Shown here piece by piece: positions 9,319 to 25,606 of a DNA stretch of 64,000 bases. How positions within the stretch are numbered: the stretch's first letter is position 1; each line of letters begins with the position of its first letter. Origin of the DNA: a bacterium (lineage in GTDB: Bacteria > Zhuqueibacterota > Zhuqueibacteria > Residuimicrobiales > Krinioviventaceae); assembly GCA_963693055.1 (NCBI GenBank), contig OY843751.1, positions 2,592,001 through 2,656,000 on the forward strand, read 5' to 3'. A program made the position numbers and the translations under genes. Below the pieces are notes generated by a model, which was not told the DNA's origin, made no database searches, and saw only the letters and a program-made list of their open reading frames with translations.

Positions 9319-9674
9319 AAGTAGCACATTATACCGATATACCAGCAAAAGTATTTGGCAGCGAAGCGCCAAATACATCAATCCGTGTTTTGATCAATGA
9401 TGAAAATGATAATGCACCTGTTTATAATCTAAGAATGATTGAGATAGGTGTTGAAGGAAATACACCTGACCATTCTCATCCATATGAACATGAGAACTTT
9501 GTTGTAGAAGGCAATGGTGCAGTAATGATTGATGGTACCTGGTATGAGTTGAAACAGGGAGATGTTGTATTAGTTCCGGCTAATATTCGACATCAATATA
9601 AAAACACGGGTAACTCTGTCTTTAAATTTCTTTGTGGAATTCCTAATTCCAAAATTCAATCTGTGATTGAATAG
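9315..9674 (+). CDS. Cupin domain protein
   Basis: TPDHSHPYEHENFVVEG and GDVVLVPANIRHQY cupin metal motifs; GAGGAGG RBS. Confidence 0.88.
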   Translation: MKVAHYTDIPAKVFGSEAPNTSIRVLINDENDNAPVYNLRMIEIGVEGNTPDHSHPYEHENFVVEGNGAVMIDGTWYELKQGDVVLVPANIRHQYKNTGNSVFKFLCGIPNSKIQSVIE

Positions 9675-11055
9675 CAGATTGTGTTTTTATTTTATCTATA
9701 ATAAAAACAATTAAAGTACTAACCAATCCCGGATAGATCGGCTCAATTGAAAACAGTGGTATTGATTGACCATAAGCTGGTTTTAATATAGTCCAACCCA
9801 ATGAAAAAAACGCTCCCGCCAGAATGCATACTTTAGCCCCGGTTGTACTCATTTTCAATTTGTGAAAAAAACTGCTCACAACCGGAATTAACAATGCCGG
9901 GGTTGTAATTGAACCTAGTTGCTTCCATAGTTCAATTACAGATTGACCATACAAAGCTAATCCTATAGAAAAAATTGTTGAAATAATTAATCCGATACGA
10001 GTATAGTATTGGATGCGGTTTTCATCTTTCCCTGAAAATCTCCACAAACAATCCCTGCCAATGGTTATTGCGGCTAAAAGCGAATAACTGTCAACTGTAG
10101 ACATAATTGTTGCAAGCAAGCCCGCAAAAAATAGTCCTGTTACAACAGGAGGTAATACAGTAACTGCCAAATCAAGATAACTGGTAACCGGATTTGAAAG
10201 ATTAGGCAAAATCGCTTTAGCGTAAAGTCCTGTCATTGTTGTTAGAAAATCAAAAAATATCCAAAATATTACAGAGATTATAATTCCCTTTTTTACAACA
10301 GAGGGATGACGAGCTGCAAAGCAACGCTGATAAAAAGCCGGTTCAACCAATGTTGATAATGCAATAAAAAACCACATGATAATGTATATGGCTCCTTGTC
10401 CACCATGCCATACAAAATGGGTAGGAGGTAAGGAAGTTTTTAGAAAATGGAATCCTCCATAGTTCTGAAAACAAAATGTTAGTAAAAGAATAAATCCTGT
10501 AAACATGAGCGAAAATTGCAAATAATCCGTTTTAACAACAGATTTAAAACCACCGGCAAAAACATAGATAAAACTGAATGATGCACCTATGACAATTCCT
10601 ATCCAGAGAGGCCAATTGAAAAAGAATTGCAGCAATACACCCAGCATCAAGACATAAGCTGCTGGTGCTGTAAATATGAACACAAATACAGCACCCATTA
10701 AAGATACTGGTTTGTCATAAGTCTTTTCCAATAATTGAGGAATAGTCAACAGCTGAGATGTCTGAACTTTTTTTGCTAAAAGAAAAGCGAATAATAATGC
10801 TGCTGTATAATATGGAACACCAAATACAATCCAGTTCGAGATCCCGTACAAGTAAGAGAATTCACCTACACCTAAAATTCCCCCATACCAAGTTGACACA
10901 AGAGTTGCTACAAATGCCGGCAATGTTAATTGTCTGCCACCTAGAAGGAAATTATTTGCATCCTTATTATCTTTTGAGCGATAAAAAGTTAGACCTAAAA
11001 TAAATACGAATAAAAGATAGAGTAATATGATCAATGTATCTATTAAAGAAAGCAC
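9643..11055 (-). CDS. Sodium:solute symporter family protein (PutP/PanF-like, substrate unknown)
   Basis: FLLGGRQL, GGFKSVVKTD, YQRCFAA, ATIMSTVDS; many TM segments; GTG start. Confidence 0.88.
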   Translation of the reverse strand: MLSLIDTLIILLYLLFVFILGLTFYRSKDNKDANNFLLGGRQLTLPAFVATLVSTWYGGILGVGEFSYLYGISNWIVFGVPYYTAALLFAFLLAKKVQTSQLLTIPQLLEKTYDKPVSLMGAVFVFIFTAPAAYVLMLGVLLQFFFNWPLWIGIVIGASFSFIYVFAGGFKSVVKTDYLQFSLMFTGFILLLTFCFQNYGGFHFLKTSLPPTHFVWHGGQGAIYIIMWFFIALSTLVEPAFYQRCFAARHPSVVKKGIIISVIFWIFFDFLTTMTGLYAKAILPNLSNPVTSYLDLAVTVLPPVVTGLFFAGLLATIMSTVDSYSLLAAITIGRDCLWRFSGKDENRIQYYTRIGLIISTIFSIGLALYGQSVIELWKQLGSITTPALLIPVVSSFFHKLKMSTTGAKVCILAGAFFSLGWTILKPAYGQSIPLFSIEPIYPGLVSTLIVFIIDKIKTQSAIQSQIEFWN

Positions 11056-11137: not shown

Positions 11138-11620
11138 TTATATAAATGTTTTAACAATTTCATTTTGAATGGTCTGCAAGTCTGAATAGGCTTTGTTGAT
11201 TTCACTTATTTTGGATTGCAGCTTTTTCATCAGTTTTTGCTTCTCAAGACCATTTCTAAAAATGATCAACAGATCATCATTATCCCAGGGTTTTTCAATA
11301 TATTGAAACAAGCCTACTTCATTAATAGCTTTAATAGCATTTTCTTTATCAGCATAGCCGGTTAATATGATTCTGGGTACTTCGGGTTTTAAATCTCGAA
11401 CTTTGGCTAAAAAGGAAATTCCATCCATTTCAGGCATTAAATAATCTGAAACTACAAGATGTACATCATTTTCTTTAATGTAATCCAGTGCTTCACTTGC
11501 CAAAGTAAAGGTTTTTACCTGGTAATCTGTTTCCAACATGAGGAATGAATTCAAGCTTGAAAGTACAATCTCCTCATCATCAACAATTACTATACTTTCT
11601 TTATCTGAACTTTTCTCCAT
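11138..11620 (-). CDS. Response regulator (receiver domain plus short C-terminal coiled coil, no DNA-binding output)
   Basis: IVDDE, SDYLMPEMDG, ILTGY, EKPW; AGGAG RBS. Confidence 0.92.
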   Translation of the reverse strand: MEKSSDKESIVIVDDEEIVLSSLNSFLMLETDYQVKTFTLASEALDYIKENDVHLVVSDYLMPEMDGISFLAKVRDLKPEVPRIILTGYADKENAIKAINEVGLFQYIEKPWDNDDLLIIFRNGLEKQKLMKKLQSKISEINKAYSDLQTIQNEIVKTFI

Positions 11621-11667
11621 GATTTACTCCTGAAATATCCTTTACAAATCAACCATATTGTCAATTT

Positions 11668-11676
11668 ATTATAACA
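11668..11676 (-). promoter_or_regulatory. Extended -10 element (TGtTATAAT) upstream of the receiver gene
   Basis: Minus strand reads TGTTATAAT about 48 nt before the ATG; no properly spaced -35 seen. Confidence 0.4.
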
Positions 11677-11727
11677 TGAAAAGTAATAAATAATATTATC
11701 AATCTCAATAGTAAAATTTTGTTTTTT

Positions 11728-12186
11728 TTAATCTTGATTTGTATTTTGATTAGTGGGAATATCTATTCGAACGCGTCCAACAAGCCGACGTAATCTTTTC
11801 GACATGGTTTTAAGTACCCCTTGAGTGATACGTGTGTGATCAGATAATAAATCATAAAAATCGTCACGATCTATGCGAAGCAGGTGTGTTGGTTCCAAAG
11901 TTTTTGCAGTAGCAACTCGAGGTTCATCATCAAAAAGGGCCCATGTGCCCATAACATCTTTTTTACCTGCATCCATGATTTTCTGTTCATTGTGGCTAAC
12001 TCTCACAAGACCATCGACAACAATATACAGAGCATCTGACGGATCTCCTTCTTTATAGATCACATAATCCGTATCATAGTTGTATTCTTCTGTTATTGCT
12101 GCAATAAAAGCCAAATCACCTGTTGTTGTATTTTCAAATACATCAACCTCTTGCAGCAGTAATACTTTTTCAATGATTGTGAGCAT
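11728..12186 (-). CDS. Stand-alone cyclic nucleotide-binding domain protein
   Basis: IYKEGDPSDALYIVVDGLV...GTWALFDDEPRVATA; no HTH; N-terminus MLTIIEKVLLL resembles the cNMP module of NTT-HEAT-cNMP fusions. Confidence 0.88.
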   Translation of the reverse strand: MLTIIEKVLLLQEVDVFENTTTGDLAFIAAITEEYNYDTDYVIYKEGDPSDALYIVVDGLVRVSHNEQKIMDAGKKDVMGTWALFDDEPRVATAKTLEPTHLLRIDRDDFYDLLSDHTRITQGVLKTMSKRLRRLVGRVRIDIPTNQNTNQD

Positions 12187-12196
12187 ATAACCTCGT

Positions 12197-15001
12197 TTAA
12201 TTTGCCATCATTTGGTAATATAAACCTATTGTTTGTTTTACCAATGGATCATTATTGATATTCAAATTTTCGACAAGTGTGTTGTATTCAGATTTTTTTA
12301 ATACTGAAATATAATAAATTGTACAACTTTTTAACCAGCTATTATTAACTGTTAATAAAAACGTTAATGCATCTGTTTCATCTTTAATTACATGATGATG
12401 ATCCATTTGCAAAGGTTTATTTTCAATCTCACTTTTATCGTCTTCAAGCAAAGGGAGAATGATTTTTTTTAATCTTGAATGTAAAAGGTTATCTAAAAAT
12501 TCCACAGCATTTGCTGTGCTGTCGTTTTGTTGACTCGTTACAGCAAGATATGCATTGTAAATGTCTCCGGGGGGATAATAAAGTCCCAATAGTCTAAATG
12601 TTCTTTCTAAAATATCTTCCATATGTTCTGTTATTGATCTTGACAATAACAACTTGGCTTTAATTTGCTGTTCTGTTAAATCTTTAATATTATTAGAAAA
12701 TACCTGATGAACTGATAACAAATTATAATATTTTTCAGTTTCTGTAAATATAATATCTTCTATTATTTCTAATTCAAATTTTAACATGGGATTTCCATCC
12801 CGTAATTTATTCAATGCCTTTAACACCCTGTATCTAAAGCCGGGATCCCCGGTATTTATATGATTAATCAAAATGTTTGCAGAATCTTGTGTATTGATCG
12901 ATGATAAAACTTTGGGAATAGCATACATTAGCCTAAAATCTGTTTCTTTGTTATGTAAAATAGAATCCATTTCAGGTAATATGGCTTCACCATATAGAGC
13001 CAAGGCATTTCTTGCAAGTGTTTTGTGTGTTTTATGAGTAAGGTACTCTGTCAAAGTTGGAATGAATAAAGGATCTCGGGTATTTCCACTTTGAACAATT
13101 GCCGATTGTACAACAGCAATTGATTCATCCTTTAATAATTCAAGCATGTATGGATATAACAACTTTTCAGAACTGATGCCAATAACTTTGGTTATTGTTA
13201 TGTTTATGAAATTCCTTTGATTACTGTCTAGTTCACGTATACAACTCTGTTGAATAAATTCATGGTAAAGGTCTGATATATTTATTTTTTTACGAAACAA
13301 TGCATCGTTCTTGAATTGGATAGATGCTGCCAACATTGCCGCACTACATATTTTATAATCACTGTTGGATATTAAAGCGCCTATCAGATTCTCACTTTCT
13401 TTATCATGCCTGAGTAAAAACAAAATAGCTTCAACTTTGATGTCAAAGTGATTGTCGCTCAACATATTGCGAACTTTATCTATAAATGCATCTGGTTCGT
13501 AATTTTGAATGATTTCCAATGTTTTTAATCGTATTTGATGAGATTTATGGTTCAATAAATTATGTAGAATGGGTGCAAGTTGTGGGTTAATATTATTTTC
13601 CAGTAGATCTAGCACATATATCAACTGCCGGGTATTATCAGTTTCCAGTATTTGCTTAAAATAGGCAACCATGGTTGCATCATCAATTTTAGTGGTTTGT
13701 TGACTGGGATCAATAGATCTTTTTTCAATGGCTAGTCTGAATGAATTCAGGTATTCACTTTTTACTTTGATGATGAGATAAAGCCAAACTATGATTAACA
13801 GAATAATAACAATGCTCAAATGCGCTACAGATAAATGAAGATTTGTAACCAGTATGATTAATAAAAGTCCGCTTATACCCGTAGCAAGACTATCAATAAA
13901 AACATCAATAAATGCTTTGGTTTGGTTTTTCATTTTACCAGGTATTGGAACGGTTAACAGTTCCAGCCCTGCTTTATTTATGGATTGTTTGAAACCACCA
14001 TCCGCAACTTTGATGATTATTGCTGACCAGAGTGCCGGTTGAAGTAAAATACTTATGGCTCCGGCTAAAATACCAACAGGCAGGAAATAGAGCGACGTTG
14101 CAACGCCAAATAATTTAAATATTCTACCGGTGAGAAACATTTGTATCAATAAAGACGCCACACTGAGATTCGACAACCAAAACCCAAAAAATGCTGTAAG
14201 TTTATCTTTATCTTTAATGATATCACTTGCAATTGCATTAAACTGGTAATCGACCAGGTTGGCTACCATAACGCCTACACCCACAATTAATGCCAGATAT
14301 AACAAGTGGCGTGATTTTGATATGATTTTGATTGCGTTACCCGGTTTTTCACCTTTACGTCTTTTTTCTTCTTTTAATAATTTTTGAGTATAATTATCAC
14401 GGGTATCTTTTTGCCATATTAATGATAAAAGTACAATACATATAATTAAAAAAAGCGCACAAAGTAACAGCATATTCGACGTGCCAAGAATAGGAGCCAG
14501 CAAACGAGTCATATAGCCCCCGGCAATACCTCCGGAAATAGCTCCTGAGCCTATAAAGCCAAACAGGCGTTTGGCTTGTCTGGCATCAAATACATAATTG
14601 GCTAATAACCAGAATTGAGATGTTGTTATGACACCAAATAACGCAACCCAGATATATATAACAAAAAAAAACCAGCCTGCATTATAATTTATTTTTAATA
14701 ATCCCCAGAATATTAACAACGAGAATATAGATATTAATAAGGTACTTTTTATTAATTTATTAAAATGTACCCTTTTAGACATGCGTGTATATAATTCAAT
14801 GATGCCTGCCGCAAAGACAGCAACCAGCATAAATGCCCATGGCAGCATATGCACACCATAATGCGTCAGAAATAATGAATTTCGTACTGGTTTGGCAATT
14901 AGTAATGAAGCAATAATCAGAAAAATGTATGAGAACATTAACAGTGTTTTATGAACTTCATTTTGTTTTATGTTAAATAATGTATTAAAAATTCTGGACA
15001 T
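12197..15001 (-). CDS. Npt1/Npt2 (NTT/TLC) family nucleotide transporter fused to HEAT/ARM repeats
   Basis: N-terminal ~420 aa hydrophobic with KPVRNSLFL, SQFWLLANYVFDARQAKRLFG, VDYQFN, KAFID; C-terminal ~500 aa of HEAT-like helical repeats. Confidence 0.88.
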   Translation of the reverse strand: MSRIFNTLFNIKQNEVHKTLLMFSYIFLIIASLLIAKPVRNSLFLTHYGVHMLPWAFMLVAVFAAGIIELYTRMSKRVHFNKLIKSTLLISIFSLLIFWGLLKINYNAGWFFFVIYIWVALFGVITTSQFWLLANYVFDARQAKRLFGFIGSGAISGGIAGGYMTRLLAPILGTSNMLLLCALFLIICIVLLSLIWQKDTRDNYTQKLLKEEKRRKGEKPGNAIKIISKSRHLLYLALIVGVGVMVANLVDYQFNAIASDIIKDKDKLTAFFGFWLSNLSVASLLIQMFLTGRIFKLFGVATSLYFLPVGILAGAISILLQPALWSAIIIKVADGGFKQSINKAGLELLTVPIPGKMKNQTKAFIDVFIDSLATGISGLLLIILVTNLHLSVAHLSIVIILLIIVWLYLIIKVKSEYLNSFRLAIEKRSIDPSQQTTKIDDATMVAYFKQILETDNTRQLIYVLDLLENNINPQLAPILHNLLNHKSHQIRLKTLEIIQNYEPDAFIDKVRNMLSDNHFDIKVEAILFLLRHDKESENLIGALISNSDYKICSAAMLAASIQFKNDALFRKKINISDLYHEFIQQSCIRELDSNQRNFINITITKVIGISSEKLLYPYMLELLKDESIAVVQSAIVQSGNTRDPLFIPTLTEYLTHKTHKTLARNALALYGEAILPEMDSILHNKETDFRLMYAIPKVLSSINTQDSANILINHINTGDPGFRYRVLKALNKLRDGNPMLKFELEIIEDIIFTETEKYYNLLSVHQVFSNNIKDLTEQQIKAKLLLSRSITEHMEDILERTFRLLGLYYPPGDIYNAYLAVTSQQNDSTANAVEFLDNLLHSRLKKIILPLLEDDKSEIENKPLQMDHHHVIKDETDALTFLLTVNNSWLKSCTIYYISVLKKSEYNTLVENLNINNDPLVKQTIGLYYQMMAN

Positions 15002-15021
15002 TCAGTAATTTGCACCTGTAA

Positions 15022-16350
15022 TTATTGATTAAAGCTGGCAACTCTTTTTTTATTTTCAATACCAATTGCTATGGCAATAATTATCCAGATTGTGACTAGT
15101 GCAATGTTAAACAGCGCAAACTGTTTGGTATGAAATGCTAAAAAATTTGTACCCAGATAAACAACCAATGCCGATAAAACATCACCTGCCCTTACAAAAA
15201 ACGTATCAATTGCCTGTTTGGCATTATACTTTTCTTCACGGGTGGTTGGAAGGAACAATACTTGTCTTACTGTATTCTGTAAAGAATAATCTGTTGAATT
15301 TTCAAATATCTTGGCCCATTTTACAAACATTAAAACAGGATAAAAAGCCATAATAAAATAACCGCCCAATGCAATAAATGGGAGAACCAGTAAAGCAACT
15401 CGAATACCTATATATTTTAAGATCCTTGAAACCAGAAACAATTGTATGATTAATCCCGCAATGTTGACAATGGTAAAGAAATCAGCATAAAATTTTCCAA
15501 TGTATTCTTTAACCATATCACCCGAACCAGGATCAGTTATCATTTTTGATGCGGCTTCAGTAACTGTTCTTCCAAGAATGTATTCACCTGTTGTATTTAC
15601 CCAATTGAGAAATAATAATAAAAACGCAATCAGCAATAGATATTTGTTTTTAAGAACCAGACCAAATCCATTGCCTTTTTTTAAAGGTTCAACAATGACT
15701 TGTTTTATTTCATCATTCAACTGGACAGTGTTTTTTTGACGTTTATCTACCAGGTTTGTTAACAATAAAGAAATCAATAACAATGCTCCAGAAAGCAGCA
15801 ATAACTGATAAACTCCTAAAACACCTATTAATCTGCCTGTGATATAGCTTCCAAAAACTGCACCTGATGAAGCTCCAAAAGCAACAATAACAAAGATCCG
15901 TTTACCATCTTCCGGAGTATACAAATCATTGGCAAATGACCAGAATTGAGCAATTACCATAAGATTGAAAATTCCAACCCATAAATAAAAGACAACGCCC
16001 AGGGGTACATTAAACTGGGCCAGGATATAAAACACAACTAAACACCCTGTAAAAAACAGTGTTACAATATTTATTAGCGGCTTACGTGGAAAACGGCTTG
16101 CAAGCCAACCATATAATGGAACAACTCCCAGTAGTAATATCGCTTGTCCCGCAGCGGCATAGCTTTTTACTTCTGCACCACCACCGGCAAGAATTAGGGC
16201 TTCTCTAACCGGTTTAATGATATAATAAGAAGTTAAGAGTAGAAACAAGTTGACGAATAACAACAGCGCTGATACACCTTCACCAGCCTTAACTTCGGTA
16301 AAGATGTTTAAAAATCTTTCCAGATAACTTTTAGATCTGTTTTCCAACAT
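15022..16350 (-). CDS. Npt1/Npt2 (NTT, ATP:ADP antiporter family) transporter, stand-alone
   Basis: YYIIKPVREALIL, QFWSFANDLY..EDGKRIF, KIFENSTDYSLQNT, EEKYNAKQAIDTFFVRAGD. Confidence 0.88.
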   Translation of the reverse strand: MLENRSKSYLERFLNIFTEVKAGEGVSALLLFVNLFLLLTSYYIIKPVREALILAGGGAEVKSYAAAGQAILLLGVVPLYGWLASRFPRKPLINIVTLFFTGCLVVFYILAQFNVPLGVVFYLWVGIFNLMVIAQFWSFANDLYTPEDGKRIFVIVAFGASSGAVFGSYITGRLIGVLGVYQLLLLSGALLLISLLLTNLVDKRQKNTVQLNDEIKQVIVEPLKKGNGFGLVLKNKYLLLIAFLLLFLNWVNTTGEYILGRTVTEAASKMITDPGSGDMVKEYIGKFYADFFTIVNIAGLIIQLFLVSRILKYIGIRVALLVLPFIALGGYFIMAFYPVLMFVKWAKIFENSTDYSLQNTVRQVLFLPTTREEKYNAKQAIDTFFVRAGDVLSALVVYLGTNFLAFHTKQFALFNIALVTIWIIIAIAIGIENKKRVASFNQ

Positions 16351-16417
16351 GACAACTCCGGTAATTTTGATTCTAGTAATATATTTATTTTATGTACATT
16401 ATAAAAGTCGTTTTTTT

Positions 16418-18016
16418 CTAATGGGTTACTCCTACCAGTTTAATTTCTCCATTTTCCCTTTTAATGATATGGAATTCAGCAGGGGGCAAATAATCTTTGT
16501 TATTTAATTTAGAAATATTTACTACAAGATAATTGTCTGCTTTAGCAAACATTTCAGATGATAGGGGGATCAATATTTCATCATTATTTACCTGATATAG
16601 AGTATTGTTTGATTGGATTAAATTTGCATCGTCTTTAATATTTAATTGATAATATTGAGAATCCTGATTGTCTACAATGCCAAATGCAATATCCTTTAAC
16701 ACAAGTGTGTCGTTTTTTATTTTAATAAATTCAAGGGGGGTAACCTGATTTAAATAATATTTGAGCACTTTGGTTTTTCGTCTTTCAAGGGTTGCCAACA
16801 TGTACTTTGCTGCCGCTTTATTAGGATAATGAGCTGAATCAACCAGAGCATTTAAATGCTCCAAGGTTACATTTGAAAGAATTTTGGCCGCCCAATAATT
16901 ATCACCAGGCTGACTATATTGTATAGGATCAAAAGGATGAGATTCTTTCCATTTTTCCGGTTTGAATAGCGTTGCCTCAAATGTGCCCACAGATGGCCAG
17001 GGTGTATAGCTCGCTTTTTCCCAATCCTGCACCAGTAATCCCATGGTAAAGAAATTAAGGAAAATATCATTTAAACTGAAATTATGATTAAAGCCGGCCC
17101 ATAATTTTTTACTTCTTGTGGCAAACGTTCCAAAAGCATCATCAAAATCTATCATATAATGTTTGACGTATCCTTTATTCTGTTCGCCTACATAAATGTC
17201 AAAAAGGTTGTCACTGCCAATTTCTGACATGTTGGTAAAAGAGGCAAACACCCGTAACGCTCTCAGAATTCTTCGCTCCTCATGAGGAAAAAGATCATTG
17301 GCGTCTTCATGCCTTACACCTTTGGAAGGTGAAGGTCCCATTGGTAATCCCTCAATAATACGGCTTGCAATGGATCTAAAAGATCCATTCTCAGGCTCAA
17401 CCGTGCGGGATAAAATTTTATCAAGCCCTGTTTCATCAAGATCGCTCGTTGAATCAATCTGTAAATCTCTACGCTCAAAATAAAACAATTGATCTTCAGG
17501 AACATTATATCCAAAACCCCAAAATAGTCGATTTACAATAAATGATGTTGAGGTAGCAATAGACGGATATCCTTGTGGGTCCATTTTCAACATATAATGA
17601 TTATCATTACTGTCTTTAATAAATAAACGTGGGGTGGTATCTGCTTTGCGCACTCTGATAACAGTCAAGGGTGGGACAGGGGGACCAAATTCTGTTGGTC
17701 CTTTAGCAAGTTCTGCTGGTGTAATGTCTTGGTAACCCAATCTCGGGATATACCAGCTTGAAGCCGGAACCTGGTCCATGCTGTTTACATCTCTGGCCTG
17801 GTTATTGGGTGCAATAAAAAAACTTTCAACTACTGGCTTGGGGGCCAATACATTTGCATAATATTCGAAACGGTTGTTGAATACTGTTTTGGGTAAAGGG
17901 ATAGGGGATATATCATTATAATACATGACCGGTTCTTTATCTGCAAAACGATACGTTTGTGGCGCGCATGCACTGAATAATACCATGAATAATAATATGT
18001 GTCTGATTTTGATCAT
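16418..18016 (-). CDS. Lipoprotein with atypical protein-kinase-like fold (HipA/PI3-4K/CotH-like), catalytic motifs possibly degenerate
   Basis: Start reassigned to ATG 18016 (MIKIRHILLFMVLFSA-C lipobox); HYMLKMD, LFWGFGYNVP, NMSEIGSDN and HYMIDFDDAFG in kinase motif order. Confidence 0.65.
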   Translation of the reverse strand: MIKIRHILLFMVLFSACAPQTYRFADKEPVMYYNDISPIPLPKTVFNNRFEYYANVLAPKPVVESFFIAPNNQARDVNSMDQVPASSWYIPRLGYQDITPAELAKGPTEFGPPVPPLTVIRVRKADTTPRLFIKDSNDNHYMLKMDPQGYPSIATSTSFIVNRLFWGFGYNVPEDQLFYFERRDLQIDSTSDLDETGLDKILSRTVEPENGSFRSIASRIIEGLPMGPSPSKGVRHEDANDLFPHEERRILRALRVFASFTNMSEIGSDNLFDIYVGEQNKGYVKHYMIDFDDAFGTFATRSKKLWAGFNHNFSLNDIFLNFFTMGLLVQDWEKASYTPWPSVGTFEATLFKPEKWKESHPFDPIQYSQPGDNYWAAKILSNVTLEHLNALVDSAHYPNKAAAKYMLATLERRKTKVLKYYLNQVTPLEFIKIKNDTLVLKDIAFGIVDNQDSQYYQLNIKDDANLIQSNNTLYQVNNDEILIPLSSEMFAKADNYLVVNISKLNNKDYLPPAEFHIIKRENGEIKLVGVTH

Positions 18017-18017
18017 A

Positions 18018-19373
18018 TTAATAAAATGAAACTCCAATATCTGCGTGTAATCGTAAGCCTTCTGAACCATAAATGATTTTAATATTTGCCATTTCATCAT
18101 CTCTGCTATGTAAATCAAAAATAAAACCTGCCGCCCAAACCGAGTGAGTAAAAGATAGTTTTCTATAATCAGAACTTGCTGTAAGATAATCTGCAAAAAT
18201 ATGAGCACCAATATTTTGAGATAATGGCCAGCTATACTGAATTGATGGTATTAGCAAATGATTGTCTAACCTGAGATATGTTCTTTCATTTACACCTCTA
18301 AATTGCTCATGATGGGGATATTCTGTGAATGGAATAATCTTGTTTTTATCTAAATTGCGAATCGCATGAACCGTTAATTTAGGGGTCAAGATTCTGTTGT
18401 TATTTAATACAGCAAACCGTTTATAAACCGTAATGCCAGATTTCAGAGATAAATTGGGATTGTTACCAAATCCTCGGTTTATACCTGTATAGGCTTCAAA
18501 AATACTTCCTGTCGAAAAATATCGGGTGTTGGGTTGTGAATCAAATTTTAAGGACAGTTCATTATACCATTGATTGTAAGTTGAATTCATGCCTGGTATA
18601 GAGCTTGTTAAAAATGTATGTGAAACCCAATTATCACCTTCAAATGCATCTTTGACTATTCTCTGGTCAAATGATGTCATTAAATAAAAATTGAAATTAG
18701 GCAAAGGTTTATAACCGGAAATGAGACGGACCGCTGTATGCTCTTGAAAAAAATATCCATATTTTGACTTTGGATTTTTTACATACTGGTTTCTGGAATC
18801 ATTTCTGGGATCGGCTCCAAAACCATAATACTTTCTATCATCATCGTATTCATGTAATACTTCAAAGTTGAGTCGAATTAACCGGTCGTCATGATTTACA
18901 AAATAGGATGCTCGTGTTTCTATTTTATATTTTTCTTCGTCAGCATATTTTGCTTTGAGCGTTAATTGAACAGGAGATTTTTTCATGATAAAGTTGATGC
19001 CTATGCGGGGACGCAAACCTGATGTAAGACTGGCAGTAGGGTACCAACCCAAGGTTTTATCCTGTGTAAAGAAAATATATTCCAAATCGTTTATAAATTT
19101 GGGATTATTGACAAGCTCTATACCATAACCTGATGCGTATTTGATACCTGCGGAAAATTGTTCAGGAACAAACAATACTGTTTTTTTTAATGTATATAGT
19201 GCTCTAAACCCTGCTTTTTCATCTCGCTCAATTCCACGTATATGCATATATGCTTGTTGAGATGTTGATAAAGTCTTTTGCTTTACCTGCAATGAATCCG
19301 TGTTATTGGTGTTAGCAGCTAATGCAGAATATATGATAAATTGTAATATTGTAATATATAATAGCTTTTTCAT
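18018..19373 (-). CDS. Outer-membrane beta-barrel protein, Omp85/BamA-TamA-like barrel without POTRA domains
   Basis: Signal peptide MKKLLYITILQFIIYSALAA, amphipathic aromatic strands, FRGV resembling the (V/I)RG(F/Y) loop-6 motif, C-terminal beta-signal LHADIGVSFY. Confidence 0.65.
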   Translation of the reverse strand: MKKLLYITILQFIIYSALAANTNNTDSLQVKQKTLSTSQQAYMHIRGIERDEKAGFRALYTLKKTVLFVPEQFSAGIKYASGYGIELVNNPKFINDLEYIFFTQDKTLGWYPTASLTSGLRPRIGINFIMKKSPVQLTLKAKYADEEKYKIETRASYFVNHDDRLIRLNFEVLHEYDDDRKYYGFGADPRNDSRNQYVKNPKSKYGYFFQEHTAVRLISGYKPLPNFNFYLMTSFDQRIVKDAFEGDNWVSHTFLTSSIPGMNSTYNQWYNELSLKFDSQPNTRYFSTGSIFEAYTGINRGFGNNPNLSLKSGITVYKRFAVLNNNRILTPKLTVHAIRNLDKNKIIPFTEYPHHEQFRGVNERTYLRLDNHLLIPSIQYSWPLSQNIGAHIFADYLTASSDYRKLSFTHSVWAAGFIFDLHSRDDEMANIKIIYGSEGLRLHADIGVSFY

Positions 19374-19418
19374 TCGTAATATTTTCCGCAAGTGTGTCTT
19401 AAATATTATCGAGCATTT

Positions 19419-21506
19419 TCATAAATTGAGCAATTGATCAAGATTGGTTGGTATTGTTACTGTAAAAGTAGTTCCCACATCTTGTTTGCTTTTTACAGAT
19501 ATGGTGCCTTTATGATCTTCAATGATCTGGTAGCAAATAGATAGGCCAAGACCTGTTCCTACCCCTACACCTTTGGTAGTAAAGCCTGGATTGAAAATTT
19601 GGTCAATTTGTTCCAAAGGTATACCTTTGCCGTTATCTGTAATTTCAACAATGATTTTATTATTTTTATGTTCTGTTTTTATTTTTATTTTACCCTTGCC
19701 GGATATTGCTTGTCTTGCATTTATTAACAGATTCAAAAAAACCTGATTTAATCTACCAGGATAGCAGGATATGATAGGTAATTTCCCAAATTCTTTGATA
19801 ATGGTAATATCATGTTTTATTTCATGGTGAATGATGACAAGCGTGTCCTCAATTCCATCATGGATATTTGCTTCTTTTAATTCAGCCTCATCCAGACGTG
19901 CAAAACTTCGTAACCGTTTTACAATATTGGTGACACGTGTTGTGCCTGATTCTATAACCCGATTCGCGTCATTAATGATGCTAAGAGATTTAAAGATCTG
20001 AGAATTGTTTTCCAGTATTTCAGGATAGTTTTCAGACAACTCGTTTTGGAGCTTTGAAACCGCCCTAACCAGCGTATTATGCATACTGTTAATTGCACCC
20101 ACAGGAGTATTTATTTCATGGGCAATGCCGGCAACTAACATTCCCAATGCACCCATTTTTTCTGATTGAACCAATTGGGCTTGGGTTTTGCGTAATTTCT
20201 GGTTTGCCTGTTCAAGATTGCTCATTACGGATTTAATTTCCGTAACATCATGGGCAATACCAATTCGTTCAATTAATTCACCATCAAAATTATAAATGCC
20301 CGTTGTGTGAGAGATAAACCATCGCCAGTTGCCGTCTTTATGGCGTAATCTGTAATTATGTTCTACATGTTTATCAAGATTCTTGTTGTCTTTGAATGTG
20401 ATATTGTCGTCAGGATGTATGAGGGATTCCATGGTTTTCCCAATATAATCTCTGACCCTGTGTCCGGTTATTTCCTGGAATTGAGGTGAAATGTAGGAAA
20501 AAGTATTGTCCGGTTTCATGGAGAATATAATATCCGTTGCATTTTCAACCAAACTCCGGAAACGTGTTTCAGAAACTTTGAGCGCTTCTTCAGCATTTCT
20601 TCTTGCATTAATATTATAAAGTGAAGCAATGTATACTTTTTCACCACCAATTTCATTTTTAACAATTGACAATATCATCCAGATAAATGAACCATTTTTA
20701 TGTTTTATCTGGAGTTCGTGGTTATAAAGATGCCCCTTTTCTTTCATTATGTTTTCAATAAATATTCTATCACAGTTTTCATGATAAAATTCTAATGTGT
20801 CTTTTTCTAATAGTTCTGATTCTGAAAATCCGGTTATATCAGATAATGGTTTGTTGATGTATAAAGTTTTTCCGTCATTTACCCTGCTGATAATATAGGG
20901 AATAGGAGATACTTCAACGATTGCTCTTAATTTATCATCAACCGTTTTTATGTCTGTAATGTCAACAAATAACCATGCTCTTCCCAGTGTTTGAGTGCTT
21001 TCCTTATTCATAACAGTAATGGATGAAAATGAAAGAAAACGCTGTGAAGGTTTAATAGTCATTAAAGAACGGCTGAAAAATTCTTTGTAATTCGAATCTT
21101 TTTTGTAGGCTTTGTCCGGATTTATTTCAAGCTGTTTGATTATTCTCCGAAATTCTTCTGGTTCTTTAAAGCATTTTTTTAACTTGGGCAACAGGTCCTG
21201 AAAGGGTTTTTGGGTAATTTCGTTATCCTTGAGATCAAAATATTCGGAAACCTGCTTATTAAACGATGTAACTATACCTAGCGGATTCACCATCAACATT
21301 GCACTGTTTGAACTGTCTAATACAGCTTGTAATTCATCTCTGCTTATAGACAATTCATTAAGCAAGGATTTTAATTGCTTGTTTTTTTCTTCAAGTTGTT
21401 CCTGAACCGACAATAATGCTACATTTGCATTAGCTAACTTGATTGCCGCTTTTTCAAGATCACGTTGGTTGTTTTTAGAGTTGGTATCGCTCTTCAATAT
21501 TGTCAT
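19419..21506 (-). CDS. Cytoplasmic multi-PAS sensor histidine kinase (NtrB-like)
   Basis: N-terminal coiled coil, three PAS/PAC repeats, H-box GIAHEINTP, N-box QVFLNLLINA, DNGKGI, FTTK, GTGLGL; no TM segment. Confidence 0.93.
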   Translation of the reverse strand: MTILKSDTNSKNNQRDLEKAAIKLANANVALLSVQEQLEEKNKQLKSLLNELSISRDELQAVLDSSNSAMLMVNPLGIVTSFNKQVSEYFDLKDNEITQKPFQDLLPKLKKCFKEPEEFRRIIKQLEINPDKAYKKDSNYKEFFSRSLMTIKPSQRFLSFSSITVMNKESTQTLGRAWLFVDITDIKTVDDKLRAIVEVSPIPYIISRVNDGKTLYINKPLSDITGFSESELLEKDTLEFYHENCDRIFIENIMKEKGHLYNHELQIKHKNGSFIWMILSIVKNEIGGEKVYIASLYNINARRNAEEALKVSETRFRSLVENATDIIFSMKPDNTFSYISPQFQEITGHRVRDYIGKTMESLIHPDDNITFKDNKNLDKHVEHNYRLRHKDGNWRWFISHTTGIYNFDGELIERIGIAHDVTEIKSVMSNLEQANQKLRKTQAQLVQSEKMGALGMLVAGIAHEINTPVGAINSMHNTLVRAVSKLQNELSENYPEILENNSQIFKSLSIINDANRVIESGTTRVTNIVKRLRSFARLDEAELKEANIHDGIEDTLVIIHHEIKHDITIIKEFGKLPIISCYPGRLNQVFLNLLINARQAISGKGKIKIKTEHKNNKIIVEITDNGKGIPLEQIDQIFNPGFTTKGVGVGTGLGLSICYQIIEDHKGTISVKSKQDVGTTFTVTIPTNLDQLLNL

Positions 21507-21582
21507 CCGTTTTAATGGTATGTGGTTTATTGAAATTACTCAATACTATAGAACGTAAACTTGACCATCAGGTTTCCTTTTT

Positions 21583-22557
21583 TTAGAACGAATCCAGATT
21601 ATAGGTAATTCCAAAAATTGGTTTGTTATCAATAATAGATATACCGGGTACAATGCGGGCATTTCTGCTTTCATGCATATAGATAATTGCTTTAGACACT
21701 GCAATACCATAAACAGCCCCCATAAAAACATCTGATGGCCAATGGGATTTATAATCGATACGTTGAAAACCAACTGTGGTTGCAATACCATATGCTATTG
21801 TAGAGAATGCCCAATGATCAACATGATGTGATAATACGGTTGCCAGTTGAAAGATGTTTGATGTATGTCCTGAAGGAAACGAGCGGTCTCCATCAAATTC
21901 AAAGAAATAGGGACCCTGTTCATCATTAGGTCTTGATCTGCCAATGATTCTGTGTAAAATTTGAACACGTGTGTTACCTTCAAAAATCATAGACTCTAAC
22001 AATTGAACCGAAGCCTCTTGTAAATGTTCTTTTTTCAAGAGATATCCTGCAAAGAAACCACCTATATAGTATGGGTGGGTATTACGGGTAAGTCCCGAGG
22101 GTTCGAAAAAATTACCCACTTGTAATACCTTTTTATACACCCGATCGTTATTATGTCTGTTCAAAAAATCATATATTTCCTGGTCTTTATAATACAATAA
22201 ACCAAAAGTAGCCAGTATGGAGCCTAGTTTAATTGCCGAGTTTTTATCAATTCGGGCAGGGGAGGTAAGAATATATTTATAATCATCATAAAGGAATTTG
22301 GTATTGTGTAGAATTAAATCCAGACTTGAATTGTAGCTTTGTACAACAGGATTTAAATTTTGTCTTGATGCTTGAAAAGTGGTATGTTGATTTTGTTGGA
22401 TTTGCAGGGTGTCAGTTTTAGTGTCGTTGGTTTTGAGTGTATTTTGTTCGTCTCCAATGTCACTAGTAGGAGAATAATGCTGTATAATATCACCTTTATT
22501 CTCAAAACCCAATGCTATTGAAAATCCGAATATAAAATATAAAAGTAAAATTTTCAT
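21583..22557 (-). CDS. PAP2 family phosphatase with signal peptide
   Basis: GRSRP, SFPSGH and RIDYKSHWPSDV PAP2 motifs; N-terminal signal MKILLLYFIFGFSIALG. Confidence 0.88.
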   Translation of the reverse strand: MKILLLYFIFGFSIALGFENKGDIIQHYSPTSDIGDEQNTLKTNDTKTDTLQIQQNQHTTFQASRQNLNPVVQSYNSSLDLILHNTKFLYDDYKYILTSPARIDKNSAIKLGSILATFGLLYYKDQEIYDFLNRHNNDRVYKKVLQVGNFFEPSGLTRNTHPYYIGGFFAGYLLKKEHLQEASVQLLESMIFEGNTRVQILHRIIGRSRPNDEQGPYFFEFDGDRSFPSGHTSNIFQLATVLSHHVDHWAFSTIAYGIATTVGFQRIDYKSHWPSDVFMGAVYGIAVSKAIIYMHESRNARIVPGISIIDNKPIFGITYNLDSF

Positions 22558-22749: not shown

Positions 22750-24717
22750 ATGTCTCTCGGTACTGATATAAAAATACTTTTGGTTGAAGATGCTGCGGTT
22801 ATGCGAAAAATGGAATTAAAGACATTAAAGTCGTTGGGCTTTGAAAATATTATTGAAGCCCCTGACGGTCAGGCCGCTCAAGATATCCTGGAAGCAGACA
22901 GTTCAATTCAACTTGTGATCAGTGACTGGAACATGCCCAATAAAAGTGGTTATGAACTTTTAATATGGGTGAGACAGCATGATACGTATAAAGATTTACC
23001 CTTTCTGATGGCAACAGGTCGTGGTGAGAAAAAAGAAATGGCCAAAGCAGATAGTGCCGGGGTTAGTAGCTTTATTTCAAAACCTTTTGATGCCAGTGAA
23101 TTGAGTGAAAAGATCCAGGAAGCCTTTGGTATGGGACAACCAGCCGAGAAAAAGATAAATCGGGTAATACAAACAGCTCCTTCCGGTAAAATATTGCTTC
23201 GTATTGGCCATATTCAAATAACTGACCATTTGGTTCTTGGTGTTCTTAAACATTTGATTAAAACAGGAGAATTAAAGCCCCAAACATTTGAATTGGATAC
23301 CCTTTGTTTGTCAAGTTGGAACCCTGTTGCAAAATCGCTTGAAAGCGGTGATATTGATGGCGCTTGTGTGCTTGCACCTATAGCTATGGATTTGTTTAGT
23401 TATGACGTGCCAATCCAATTAATTTTATTTGCTCACCGAAATGGAAGTATATTTGTACGTAACCGTAAGGGTGATGAATATAGAGAACCTTATGAAAATT
23501 TCTTTCGTGGTAAATCTTTTCTGTTGCCACACCTTATGTCTATACATAACATTCTTGCTCACATGTTTTTCAGCGGAATCGGTTTAAATGCAGGATTTGC
23601 AGGTGATGAAGGTGTAGATGTTAACTTTGAAGTTGTACCGCCTGTAAAAATGCCGGAAATTCTTGCCAATAATGAAAAAGCATGTGGTTACCTGGTTGCT
23701 GAACCTTTGGGTACAAAAGCGATTGCCAGTGGAATTGCAGAATTGCAGTTTATTTCAAGCGAATTGTGGGACAACCATCCTTGTTGCGTTGTTACAATGC
23801 AGCAAGATATTATTGACCAACATCCCGAAGTTGTTCAGGAATTTACCAATATGCTGGTTTACGCGGGCAAGTTGATTGAAGAAAAACCGGGAATTGCCGC
23901 TGAAATTGGTGTTGAATTTTTAGATCCTAACAAAGTTTTAGGCCTCAAACCCGCATTAATTAAAAATGTATTAACAGAACCCAAGGGTATTAAAACCGGT
24001 GATTTGTATCCATCCGTTGAAGATCTTGATCGTATTCAACATTACATGCACGATAATATTGGTTTAGGAAATATTATTGATCTGGATAAATTTGTAGATA
24101 TGCGTTTTGCTGATGTTGCCTGCAAAGATACTGATGTTAATAAACGTTCATCTGTAGTTAGGTCTGAAGATAAAGTTCAGGATATTCTTGTTAGAGATAG
24201 CGGATATCAGGCAGTTCAGTCTGAAAAATCAATGATCAATTTAGAAGGAAAATATTTATCTTTTTCAATGGGCAAGGAAGAATATGGAATTGATATTTTA
24301 AAAATCAAAGAAATTATTAAAATGCAAAATATCCGTTCCATTCCCAATTTACCACCGCATATCAAAGGCGTTATTAATTTACGTGGTAGTGTAATACCGG
24401 TAATTGATCTGCGTCTTCGTTTTGGAATGACACCCATGGATTATGATGAACGCACTGTAATTATTGTTTTGGAAATATACTACCAGGGTCGAACTGTAAT
24501 GATGGGGGTAGCAGTTGATTCTGTTTCCGAAGTTTCTGACATACACGTTGCAGATATAGATGAAACGCCATCATTTGGTGTGAATACGCAAACAGACTAC
24601 ATTCTGGCAATTGCAAAACTCAAGGGCCATGTTAAAATCCTTTTGGATATTGACAAAGTTTTAACCCGCAATGAAGCAGAGATAGTAACCGAGATGTTTC
24701 AAGACGCAGCTCAATAA
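22750..24717 (+). CDS. Fusion protein: CheY-like receiver, NrtA/CmpA/NasS-type substrate-binding fold, and CheW domain
   Basis: REC (LLVED, SDWNMP, MATG, SKPF); middle LRIGHIQITDH, HRNGS, SIHN, VAEP, WDNHPCCV; CheW YLSF..EEYGIDI, KGVINLRGSVIPVIDLR, VDSVSEV; no signal peptide. Confidence 0.88.
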   Translation: MSLGTDIKILLVEDAAVMRKMELKTLKSLGFENIIEAPDGQAAQDILEADSSIQLVISDWNMPNKSGYELLIWVRQHDTYKDLPFLMATGRGEKKEMAKADSAGVSSFISKPFDASELSEKIQEAFGMGQPAEKKINRVIQTAPSGKILLRIGHIQITDHLVLGVLKHLIKTGELKPQTFELDTLCLSSWNPVAKSLESGDIDGACVLAPIAMDLFSYDVPIQLILFAHRNGSIFVRNRKGDEYREPYENFFRGKSFLLPHLMSIHNILAHMFFSGIGLNAGFAGDEGVDVNFEVVPPVKMPEILANNEKACGYLVAEPLGTKAIASGIAELQFISSELWDNHPCCVVTMQQDIIDQHPEVVQEFTNMLVYAGKLIEEKPGIAAEIGVEFLDPNKVLGLKPALIKNVLTEPKGIKTGDLYPSVEDLDRIQHYMHDNIGLGNIIDLDKFVDMRFADVACKDTDVNKRSSVVRSEDKVQDILVRDSGYQAVQSEKSMINLEGKYLSFSMGKEEYGIDILKIKEIIKMQNIRSIPNLPPHIKGVINLRGSVIPVIDLRLRFGMTPMDYDERTVIIVLEIYYQGRTVMMGVAVDSVSEVSDIHVADIDETPSFGVNTQTDYILAIAKLKGHVKILLDIDKVLTRNEAEIVTEMFQDAAQ

Positions 24718-24733: not shown

Positions 24734-25606
24734 ATGAATAAACAATTACGAGCGCTGTACAGGGATATGATAATCGCCATGGGAGTGGAGGGTTTGACTA
24801 TCCCTGTCACAGCAGTGAAATTTTTTAAAAATGGGGATACCATCCCTGATAAAATTATGGATTATCATCCCGATGATTTGACAGTCACCAGTTGCCAGGC
24901 TACCAAGCAGGCATCCTTGGGTGATGCTGTTTGTTTGACTCGTGATAACATTGGCTGTATTGCAGCTGCAATAACCTTTGGGCTTGTTGATCAGTATGAT
25001 GACAAACCCCTGGGTAAATCAAGAGTTTATACTGATATTATGCGTCAACAGTCAGATGCTTTGAATGATTTTATACCACCTTCACCCAAAGATTTTACTT
25101 CAGGCGTTGTATATGCATGCAAGGATTCCAATAACCCAGATTTCTGTTTGTTCGGCCATGACGACAGTGGAAGATTCAAGACTGTAGAGTTGGCCCAAAA
25201 TGCGATCAGTGAGATGATGGCTATTCAACCTGCAACAATGAACGCAGTCTTTTTTTGTTCACCTGAATTTGATGAAATAGAGCTTGAACCTGATATTATA
25301 GTATTATCGGTGAGACCTGTTGAACTGGCAAGAATTATACAGGCCTATCAATTTACAACAGGTAAGCGTGTTACTGCCAATATGGGTCCGGTACGTGTAG
25401 TCAATTCGGATCTGATTGTTCGTCCGTATTTAACGCAAGAGATGAATATTTCAACTTATTGTATAGGTGCACGTCTTATTGCCCAGTATGAAGCAGACAA
25501 GATGGGAATGGGTATCCCATATCACACTTTTAAATTAATTGCAGAATCAATGAATACCTCTAAAACAGGATATCCTTTTCACTTGTACCCAGGTGCTGAT
25601 GATTAA
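24734..25606 (+). CDS. DUF169 family protein (Cys-containing)
   Basis: PVTAVKF, SCQA, IGCIAAAITFG, PDIIVL..RP, STYCIGAR pattern typical of DUF169; AAGGAG RBS. Confidence 0.72.
   Translation: MNKQLRALYRDMIIAMGVEGLTIPVTAVKFFKNGDTIPDKIMDYHPDDLTVTSCQATKQASLGDAVCLTRDNIGCIAAAITFGLVDQYDDKPLGKSRVYTDIMRQQSDALNDFIPPSPKDFTSGVVYACKDSNNPDFCLFGHDDSGRFKTVELAQNAISEMMAIQPATMNAVFFCSPEFDEIELEPDIIVLSVRPVELARIIQAYQFTTGKRVTANMGPVRVVNSDLIVRPYLTQEMNISTYCIGARLIAQYEADKMGMGIPYHTFKLIAESMNTSKTGYPFHLYPGADD

Follow-up and report, generated by a model that had tools for sequence, protein, structure and literature searches.

In a 64,000-nt window of the complete 6.5 Mb genome of a free-living bacterium (the window being the whole stretch of DNA that was analysed, and coordinates being positions within it unless a locus is named), genes for two carriers of the NTT family lie next to a gene pair encoding an Omp85-type outer-membrane barrel and a lipoprotein with a predicted kinase-like fold. 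The genes for barrel and lipoprotein form an obligate pair, and NTT-family genes are tied to that pair both by their position and by their phyletic pattern. By the usual teaching the periplasm contains no ATP, and envelope processes are accounted for by energy relayed from the inner membrane. The gene set described here recurs in many bacteria, and if its carriers export ATP there would be ATP-driven chemistry in the periplasm; the linkage of ATP/ADP-carrier homologs to an outer-membrane-anchored family of putative kinases makes this idea directly testable. Starting from the observed gene linkage, homologies and conserved motifs, together with the predicted fold and docking, we propose with a probability of roughly 40% that the carriers pass ATP out for ADP, that Omp85-docked kinase-fold lipoproteins use this ATP, that phosphoesterases reverse or recycle the outcome and that cytoplasmic proteins set the flux. 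The direction of transport, its cargo, the catalytic activity and the substrate are what we infer in this proposal, ATP export purely so.

The cluster consists of eight co-oriented open reading frames (ORFs) on the minus strand between 11138 and 22557, with intergenic gaps of 76, 45, 1, 67, 20, 10 and 107 nt, and recomputing the ORF coordinates gave exactly the arrangement that an earlier note on this DNA had described. From the highest coordinate downward the genes encode a PAP2-family phosphatase, a PAS sensor histidine kinase, the barrel, the lipoprotein, a short NTT carrier, an NTT-HEAT fusion carrier, a cyclic-nucleotide-binding protein and a receiver-domain protein. The same eight genes are found in identical order, with 88–99% protein identity, in a sister genome (locus L004). 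Since the sister genome keeps both gene set and order, and the core of the cluster recurs in many other loci, the cluster is not a chance arrangement. A promoter scan returned promoter-like sites at chance level (67 found vs. 67.1 expected), and a terminator scan found no candidate between the genes of the cluster.

The barrel gene (18018–19373, minus strand, 451 residues) and the lipoprotein gene (16418–18016, minus strand, 532 residues) are nearly contiguous, with the lipoprotein ATG at 18016 one base past the barrel TAA and a lipobox reading LFSAC at the start of the lipoprotein. To assess this pairing more widely, the best 80 of 270 relatives from a metagenome profile scan were combined with two genome loci and stripped of 10 near-duplicates, giving 72 non-redundant loci. 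A barrel gene stands directly upstream of the lipoprotein gene in 51 of the 52 non-redundant loci that carry at least 1000 nt of upstream sequence (the exception being L050), and the window's own genome has three barrel and lipoprotein pairs in which all copies are paired.

The linkage to NTT genes in other genomes, on which the earlier note had staked its proposal, is found in both of the surveys made here. Among loci with at least 500 nt of downstream sequence, 25 of 53 have an NTT-type match within 10 kb, and 17 have it directly downstream and on the same strand; the count becomes 20 of 42 when at least 1500 nt of downstream sequence is required. This adjacency persists at lipoprotein identities of 26–33% and in loci of widely differing composition. 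At the level of whole genomes, we surveyed 167 genomes of the window's phylum (including the unpublished genome G162, on which nothing rests) and found the lipoprotein in 42, NTT-type genes in 55 and both in 40, the two with the lipoprotein alone being fragmented and about 90% complete. Of the 42 lipoprotein-positive genomes, 28 have an NTT gene no more than 5 kb from a lipoprotein gene. The short NTT form follows the lipoprotein most closely, as 34 of the 35 phylum genomes that encode it also encode the lipoprotein, the exception lying at a contig start.

Judged by their sequences, both carriers are true homologs of the TLC/NTT family. The short carrier, NTT1 (15022–16350, minus strand, 442 residues), matches Pfam MFS_1 and scores 45.1 bits against the Pfam TLC model (PF03219), while the NTT-HEAT fusion (12197–15001, minus strand, 934 residues) scores 57.4 bits over residues 108–417 and also matches HEAT_2, both carriers being well above the TLC cut-off of 21. 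A profile of the NTT1 family (A4) run against the PDB has as its sole matches the solved ADP,ATP carriers 9j3n_A (4.4e-32) and 9j3j_A (3.8e-25), nearly over their full length, and the motifs FWxFAN...KR and KxKxAID are common to the NTT1 family and the solved carriers; as a single sequence NTT1 reaches them only at E 0.005. The two carriers share 29% identity over the carrier domain, and a crude hydropathy scan gives 12–13 partly overlapping peaks per carrier domain. TLC genes are rare, with the genome's only two being those in the cluster and none of 14 control genomes giving a match.

The NTT-HEAT gene is followed, 10 nt downstream, by the gene for a stand-alone cyclic-nucleotide-binding protein (11728–12186, minus strand, 152 residues; Pfam cNMP_binding, 1.4e-18), and adjacency of NTT-HEAT to a gene for a cNBD (a domain that binds cyclic nucleotides) is seen also in L025, L026, L036, L058 and L071. 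The architecture of NTT-HEAT with or without a cNBD is described for free-living bacteria in the accessible text of Major, Embley and Williams (2017; PMC5381601), and the window arrangement is identical to that of their clade. That text, in its accessible portion, neither connects the carriers with an Omp85 barrel or with a lipoprotein of kinase-like type nor assigns a function to the free-living forms. What differs from that clade here is that the short carrier tracks the lipoprotein family almost 1:1, and that export rather than import is proposed.

The barrel begins with a signal peptide and ends in ...VSFY, with an aromatic last residue. The window copy has no match in Pfam (including the Omp85 and Omp85_2 models) or in NCBIfam, so its identity as an Omp85 protein rests on the family profile and the structural model. 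For the profile we aligned 32 barrels whose genes stand immediately upstream of a lipoprotein gene (alignment A2); 17 of them match Pfam Omp85, the window copy not being among these 17. The A2 profile matches 9ccg_A (a POTRA domain-containing protein) at 7.6e-11, TamA at 8e-9 and BamA at 3e-7, in each case through the barrel of the matched protein. The loop-6 RG motif (R359-G360) is invariant across the alignment, with the window copy reading FRGV, and F393 and D395 are conserved on the up-strand that follows this motif. The AlphaFold model shows 16 beta-strands, the first at residue 108 (predicted local distance difference test, pLDDT, 78.1; predicted template modelling score, pTM, 0.70), with residues 21–89 modelled as helical at low confidence, and neither the Pfam scan nor the AlphaFold model contains a POTRA or other periplasmic domain.

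The window barrel thus belongs to the "noNterm" class of Omp85 proteins, the POTRA-less forms that were reportedly treated by Heinz and Lithgow in 2014. It shares with that class the 16-strand barrel, the loop-6 RG motif, the missing POTRA domain and the adjoining lipoprotein gene, and differs from it in falling below the Pfam Omp85 and Omp85_2 models, in having a conserved [IL]RG[IV]E segment of its own and in having as its partner a kinase-fold lipoprotein instead of a DUF1566 or Big-domain protein. The name (V/I)RG(F/Y) lid-lock motif for the loop-6 element is taken from the accessible text of PMC11358297, which also notes lipoprotein genes flanking the noNterm Omp85 genes of Leptospira.

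That the lipoprotein is docked on its own barrel, as the earlier note had supposed, is what the complex model predicts. Modelling barrel residues 25–451 with lipoprotein residues 18–532 gave an interaction score (ipSAE) of 0.78/0.78/0.77 compared with 0.00 for the best control, a mark that 116 of 157 solved complexes and 2 of 215 mismatched pairs attain. The partners have a pLDDT of at least 82 and the runs share at least 71% of their contacts. On the barrel the predicted interface comprises residues 36–53, 323–327, 380–392 and 424, which correspond to the N-terminal segment plus the turns that follow strands 10, 12 and 14 and, in the 16-strand model, form the periplasmic rim. All 16 of the 16 clade-A barrels (the clades are defined below) have the motif [IL]RG[IV]E in their N-terminal docking segment, and R327, Y380 and W382 are conserved in 30/32, 32/32 and 27/32 barrel sequences, respectively. 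The model supports, without proving, docking of the lipoprotein on the periplasmic side of the barrel.

Lipoprotein–barrel assemblies are familiar from the complexes of BamA with its lipoproteins and of RcsF with outer-membrane proteins, which resemble the predicted complex in that a lipoprotein is held at the periplasmic side of, or inside, a barrel that belongs to the Omp85 family or is made by it. They differ in that the lipoprotein here is enzyme-like and has a dedicated barrel encoded one base upstream, with no barrel-assembly role indicated. The predicted interface also bears on where the lipoprotein would work. Capture of external nucleotides at the cell surface, which had been put forward alongside ATP export, is disfavoured because the predicted contacts use the N-terminal segment and periplasmic turns of the barrel. 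Another arrangement would be a two-partner or Slam-like export, in which the barrel carries the lipoprotein to the cell surface for external substrates, and Omp85-type barrels encoded beside a passenger or lipoprotein are indeed known from two-partner secretion (TPS) systems. The flanking lipoprotein genes of Leptospira (PMC11358297, accessible text) would fit it as well. We regard such export as very unlikely, given that the barrel has no POTRA or DUF560 match, that the predicted interface sits on the periplasmic rim and N-terminal segment, and that a stable, high-confidence predicted complex between two folded proteins points to a partner that stays in place and not to a passenger.

The lipoprotein belongs to a large family that has no name. 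The window copy matches nothing in Pfam or NCBIfam, a comparison of 38 relatives with Pfam gave no consistent family and reached no kinase model, and a word-based search returned 163 relatives, none of which carries a family name; where a source is named, these are KSB1, Calditrichia, Fibrobacteria and comparable metagenome-assembled genomes. In the ESM Atlas, the closest clusters that bear a Pfam label are all atypical kinases (Fam20C, HipA_2, LepB_N and CotH), with scores of only 0.77–0.79, the nearest named cluster being Fam20C at 0.79. The AlphaFold model of the lipoprotein (pLDDT 89.2, pTM 0.90) has an N-lobe-like sheet at residues 117–145, a helix at 153–168, a C-lobe, a region of helices and, at 428–531, a C-terminal beta-sandwich, in which the kinase-like core would span approximately residues 117–300.

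Support for this reading comes mainly from the conserved residues. Across 64 family members the putative beta-3 lysine (K144) is kept in 63, and an H-x-D-x-[KR]-x-x-N loop is present in which D265 is conserved in 56 (with Glu in 3 more), [RK]267 in 53, N270 in 62 and D273 in 63, while D290-F291 of the DFG motif is kept in 64 of 64. The family is kinase-like in its sequence signature, with weaker support from the predicted fold and its Foldseek matches to CtkA, PI4KIIalpha and Fam20C/A (scores below). Sub-threshold matches to HipA_2 (PF20613) in one shared register occur in 13 of 30 divergent, mostly clade-B members (11–21.6 bits compared with a cut-off of 27), and an hhalign comparison of clade B with 18 HipA_2 proteins gives a probability of 77.1 and E 2e-5. 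The family is a remote relative of HipA_2 and not a member of it. The likeness to HipA-like kinases (HipA_2/HipA_C) and to CtkA (3akk) consists of the best profile–profile relation for the former and the best superposition for the latter; the lipoproteins differ from both in being twice as long and lipidated, in having extra N-terminal, helical and beta-sandwich parts, and in a catalytic loop of the kind seen in eukaryote-type kinases (H-x-D-x-[KR]-x-x-N).

In a tree computed from 64 lipoproteins, two clades separate with 100/100 support. Clade A has 19 members, including the window copy and the genome's own copy 2, with an NTT gene directly next to the pair in 2, nearby in 2, none in 9 and a flank too short to tell in 6. 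Clade B has 45 members, including the genome's copy 3, with the corresponding counts being 15, 2, 13 and 15. A clade-A pair followed by a clade-B pair is found in L010 and L012, which are the closest relatives of the window with enough sequence, and in L025; NTT genes come next after the two pairs in L010 and L025. The gene order of the window therefore looks derived, in that its relatives hold a second, canonical pair between the clade-A pair and the carrier. The clade-B pair of the window's genome lies 460 kb from the cluster, so that the carriers must serve the lipoproteins in trans, if at all.

The tandem pairs occupy 8492–17346 in L010 and 8396–14965 in L025; L010 also has a third Omp85 gene (11580–12830) between its two pairs and an exported Metallophos gene before NTT1. 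Shortly downstream of clade-A pairs in L005 (12401–14581) and L017 (11671–13857) there is a gene for a patatin–Omp85 fusion resembling PlpD, which directly follows the pair in L017 and comes after an intervening DUF4136 gene in L005.

In the mechanism that we propose, the NTT carriers would move cytoplasmic ATP into the periplasm in exchange for ADP, and the kinase-fold lipoproteins, each held under its own POTRA-less Omp85 barrel, would spend this ATP on an envelope substrate. Exported phosphoesterases (PAP2 here and Metallophos lipoproteins elsewhere) would reverse or recycle the products, and the cytoplasmic HEAT domain, the cyclic-nucleotide-binding protein, the receiver protein and the PAS kinase would regulate the flux. 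The one NTT pair of the genome would serve all three of its barrel and lipoprotein pairs in trans.

A number of observations weigh against this mechanism, and the first group of them concerns the kinase assignment. Foldseek comparison of the lipoprotein model with the PDB gives weak E-values only, and the two matches below 0.001 are FN3-type monobody fusions, which are attributed to the beta-sandwich of the lipoprotein. The kinase matches range in E from 1.5e-3 to 1e-2 with a large root-mean-square deviation, and comprise PI4KIIalpha (4hne_B, 1.5e-3), H. pylori CtkA (3akk_D, 2.8e-3, probability 1.00, TMt 0.52, the best-superposing kinase), Fam20C (4kqa_D, 7.1e-3), Fam20A (5wrr_A, 7.5e-3, probability 0.95), and PI3Kdelta (7lq1_A) and SMG1 (7pw6), both at 1.1e-2 with a probability of 0.63. 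A profile of the lipoprotein compared with PDB sequences returned noise only (E 0.41 and 1). The HipA_2 cut-off is reached by none of the 38 members of the clade-A-rich set, nor is any family member above it, and the hhalign probability against HipA_2 for the window's own clade is only 37.5. Finally, the catalytic loop of the window copy reads N-M-S-E-I-G-S-D-N, followed by DFD, with Met, Glu and Gly standing for His, Asp and Lys/Arg.

The same residues are degenerate in the sister-genome lipoprotein. Because the catalytic Asp, Lys/Arg and His are replaced in the window copy while K144, N270 and D290, the residues for ATP/Mg binding, remain, this copy may act as a weak kinase or as a pseudokinase-like partner that binds ATP, and not be the main enzyme. 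The two other copies, at positions 5700478–5702046 and 2148860–2150080 of the genome, are canonical (NHSDIRIDN with DFG and KHFDTKAGN with DFG). Of what the earlier note had read as a kinase-fold lipoprotein, a kinase-like core is supported for the family, and the reading is weakened for the window copy by the missing canonical Asp, Lys/Arg and His.

A second group of observations concerns the direction of transport. To our knowledge, the NTTs that have been characterised all import or exchange nucleotides in the service of parasites or plastids, and ATP that reached the periplasm could leak out through porins. Characterised NTTs bring nucleotides into the compartment that bears them, according to the accessible text of Major et al. 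(2017; PMC5381601), and the accessible part of a 2026 preprint gives the AAC of mitochondria (their ADP/ATP carrier) as the only known ATP exporter. This inward transport would suit a system for nucleotide salvage, in which the barrel admits external nucleotides, the lipoprotein is a periplasmic receptor, the NTTs import and the phosphoesterases trim the substrates. A window lipoprotein that has ATP/Mg-binding residues and lacks catalytic ones fits such a binder, and exported Metallophos and PAP2 enzymes do recur. Salvage nonetheless seems unlikely to us, since the family as a whole keeps its full catalytic signature (D265 in 56/64, [RK]267 in 53/64), which would be needless for a mere binder, since the genome makes its own purines and ATP, and since the phosphoesterases would destroy the importer's cargo. 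We also know of no Omp85 barrel that acts as a solute channel. Import in the service of energy parasitism is a separate reading, which was rejected for this 6.5 Mb genome as unlikely, given that both purH and the gamma subunit of ATP synthase are encoded in it.

A third group concerns the linkage itself. The genome's two other barrel and lipoprotein pairs lie in unrelated neighbourhoods with no adjoining NTT gene: pair 2 is beside a rhamnosidase and a thioesterase, and the clade-B pair (L007, at G000:C1:2139000-2158900) is beside a GT4 glycosyltransferase and a sigma-54 activator. Among loci with enough flank, 9 of 13 in clade A and 13 of 30 in clade B (22 of 43 altogether) have no NTT gene nearby, and the NTT-HEAT form is more independent than the short one, being present in 51 phylum genomes of which 15 are without the lipoprotein. 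These observations would fit independent modules, the pair being a self-contained outer-membrane device (for example a kinase or pseudokinase that targets a lipid or protein of the envelope and draws on a different phosphate donor, or a structural partner of the barrel) whose adjacency to NTT genes reflects shared regulation or inheritance and no passing of substrate between them. Such independence is improbable in light of the co-occurrence of an NTT gene in 40 of 42 lipoprotein-positive genomes and of the lipoprotein in 34 of 35 short-NTT genomes, of a TLC family that is otherwise very rare (0 of 14 control genomes), and of an adjacency that is retained between lipoproteins of low identity in diverse loci. 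Near the genome's second pair there is also a gene for a curlin-repeat protein (L006:15410-15958), while L007 additionally contains an rve integrase gene and a neutral-ceramidase-like gene, and its barrel matches Pfam Omp85 at 2.6e-22.

A close parallel to the export mechanism is found in eukaryotes, where secretory-pathway kinases are supplied by a lumenal ATP/ADP exchanger. The likeness to Fam20C, a casein kinase of the Golgi, and to the pseudokinase Fam20A lies in the coupling of a non-cytosolic kinase to a dedicated adenine-nucleotide carrier, in the Foldseek matches, and in the presence of degenerate and canonical copies together, as encoded in L010, L012 and L025. The systems differ in that there is no membership at the sequence level, that the carriers here come from a different transporter family, and that the setting here is the bacterial periplasm with the kinase-fold lipoprotein bound to an Omp85 barrel. 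A more specific version of the proposal would be purposeful ATP export by free-living diderms, in which the short NTT and a regulated unit of NTT-HEAT, cyclic-nucleotide-binding and receiver proteins feed barrel-hung kinases and the window copy binds ATP and acts as a Fam20A-like regulator of the canonical copies; this we hold to be doubtful.

If the export mechanism is true, it would be an equivalent, in bacteria, of the secretory-pathway kinases of eukaryotes and provide a first function for free-living NTT and NTT-HEAT carriers, for POTRA-less Omp85 proteins and for the large unnamed lipoprotein family. If it is wrong, the tight co-occurrence still calls for an explanation, for example a new route of nucleotide uptake. 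In the literature, supplementary files aside, we found no description of NTT carriers linked to an Omp85 barrel or to a kinase-like lipoprotein. Beyond the gene linkage and the docking, this work contributes the phylum-wide co-occurrence counts, the two lipoprotein clades, the derived gene order of the window, the degenerate loop of its lipoprotein and the H-x-D-x-[KR]-x-x-N signature resembling that of eukaryotic protein kinases (ePK-like).

The remaining genes of the cluster are accessory to the pair and its carriers. The PAP2-family phosphatase (21583–22557, minus strand, 324 residues; Pfam PAP2 5.2e-17, 62.2 bits, cut-off 27.2) consists of a hydrophobic N-terminal segment, a linker rich in Q, N and T and the PAP2 domain, and its best sequence match in the PDB is LpxE (6ebu_A, 3.6e-8). 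Its PSGH and R-x5-H-x3-D motifs are intact, FPSGH and QRIDYKSHWPSD being present, and the Lys of the first motif is not evident. Among the loci, PAP2 stands beside the module in the window, its sister L004 and L084 alone, and was rejected as a core part of the system since its linkage is lineage-specific. The suggestion that PAP2 is a fixed "eraser" does not carry over to the other loci, which have Metallophos, PhoD-like or DSPc phosphoesterases instead: the Metallophos proteins form one ortholog group, found in 8 loci and starting with a signal or lipobox sequence, the PhoD-like protein is that of L021 and the DSPc protein that of L086.

The PAS sensor histidine kinase (19419–21506, minus strand, 695 residues; Pfam PAS_9, HisKA and HATPase_c) is cytoplasmic, as no hydrophobic segment was found in the hydropathy scan, and its homologs accompany the module in six other non-redundant loci in addition to the sister L004. 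The stand-alone receiver-domain response regulator (11138–11620, minus strand, 160 residues; Pfam Response_reg 2.9e-26) has homologs of 51–76% identity near the module in L026, L051, L058 and L071, and the receiver and cyclic-nucleotide-binding proteins accompany NTT-HEAT across loci. A sodium:solute symporter gene (9643–11055, minus strand) is the ninth co-oriented gene, starting 82 nt after the receiver gene and recurring in the sister locus L004, and it may be part of the same transcript as the cluster.

Divergent from the cluster, on the plus strand, a gene at 22750–24717 encodes a three-domain fusion of a receiver, a periplasmic-binding-protein-like NMT1_2 domain and CheW. CheW also occurs as a gene of its own after the module in L053, L055 and L068, with an HDOD gene next in L055 and L068. 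Further along the window, a DUF169 gene (24734–25606) precedes a plus-strand gene for a class-V, cysteine desulfurase-like aminotransferase (25624–27057) that carries an N-terminal DsrC-like domain.

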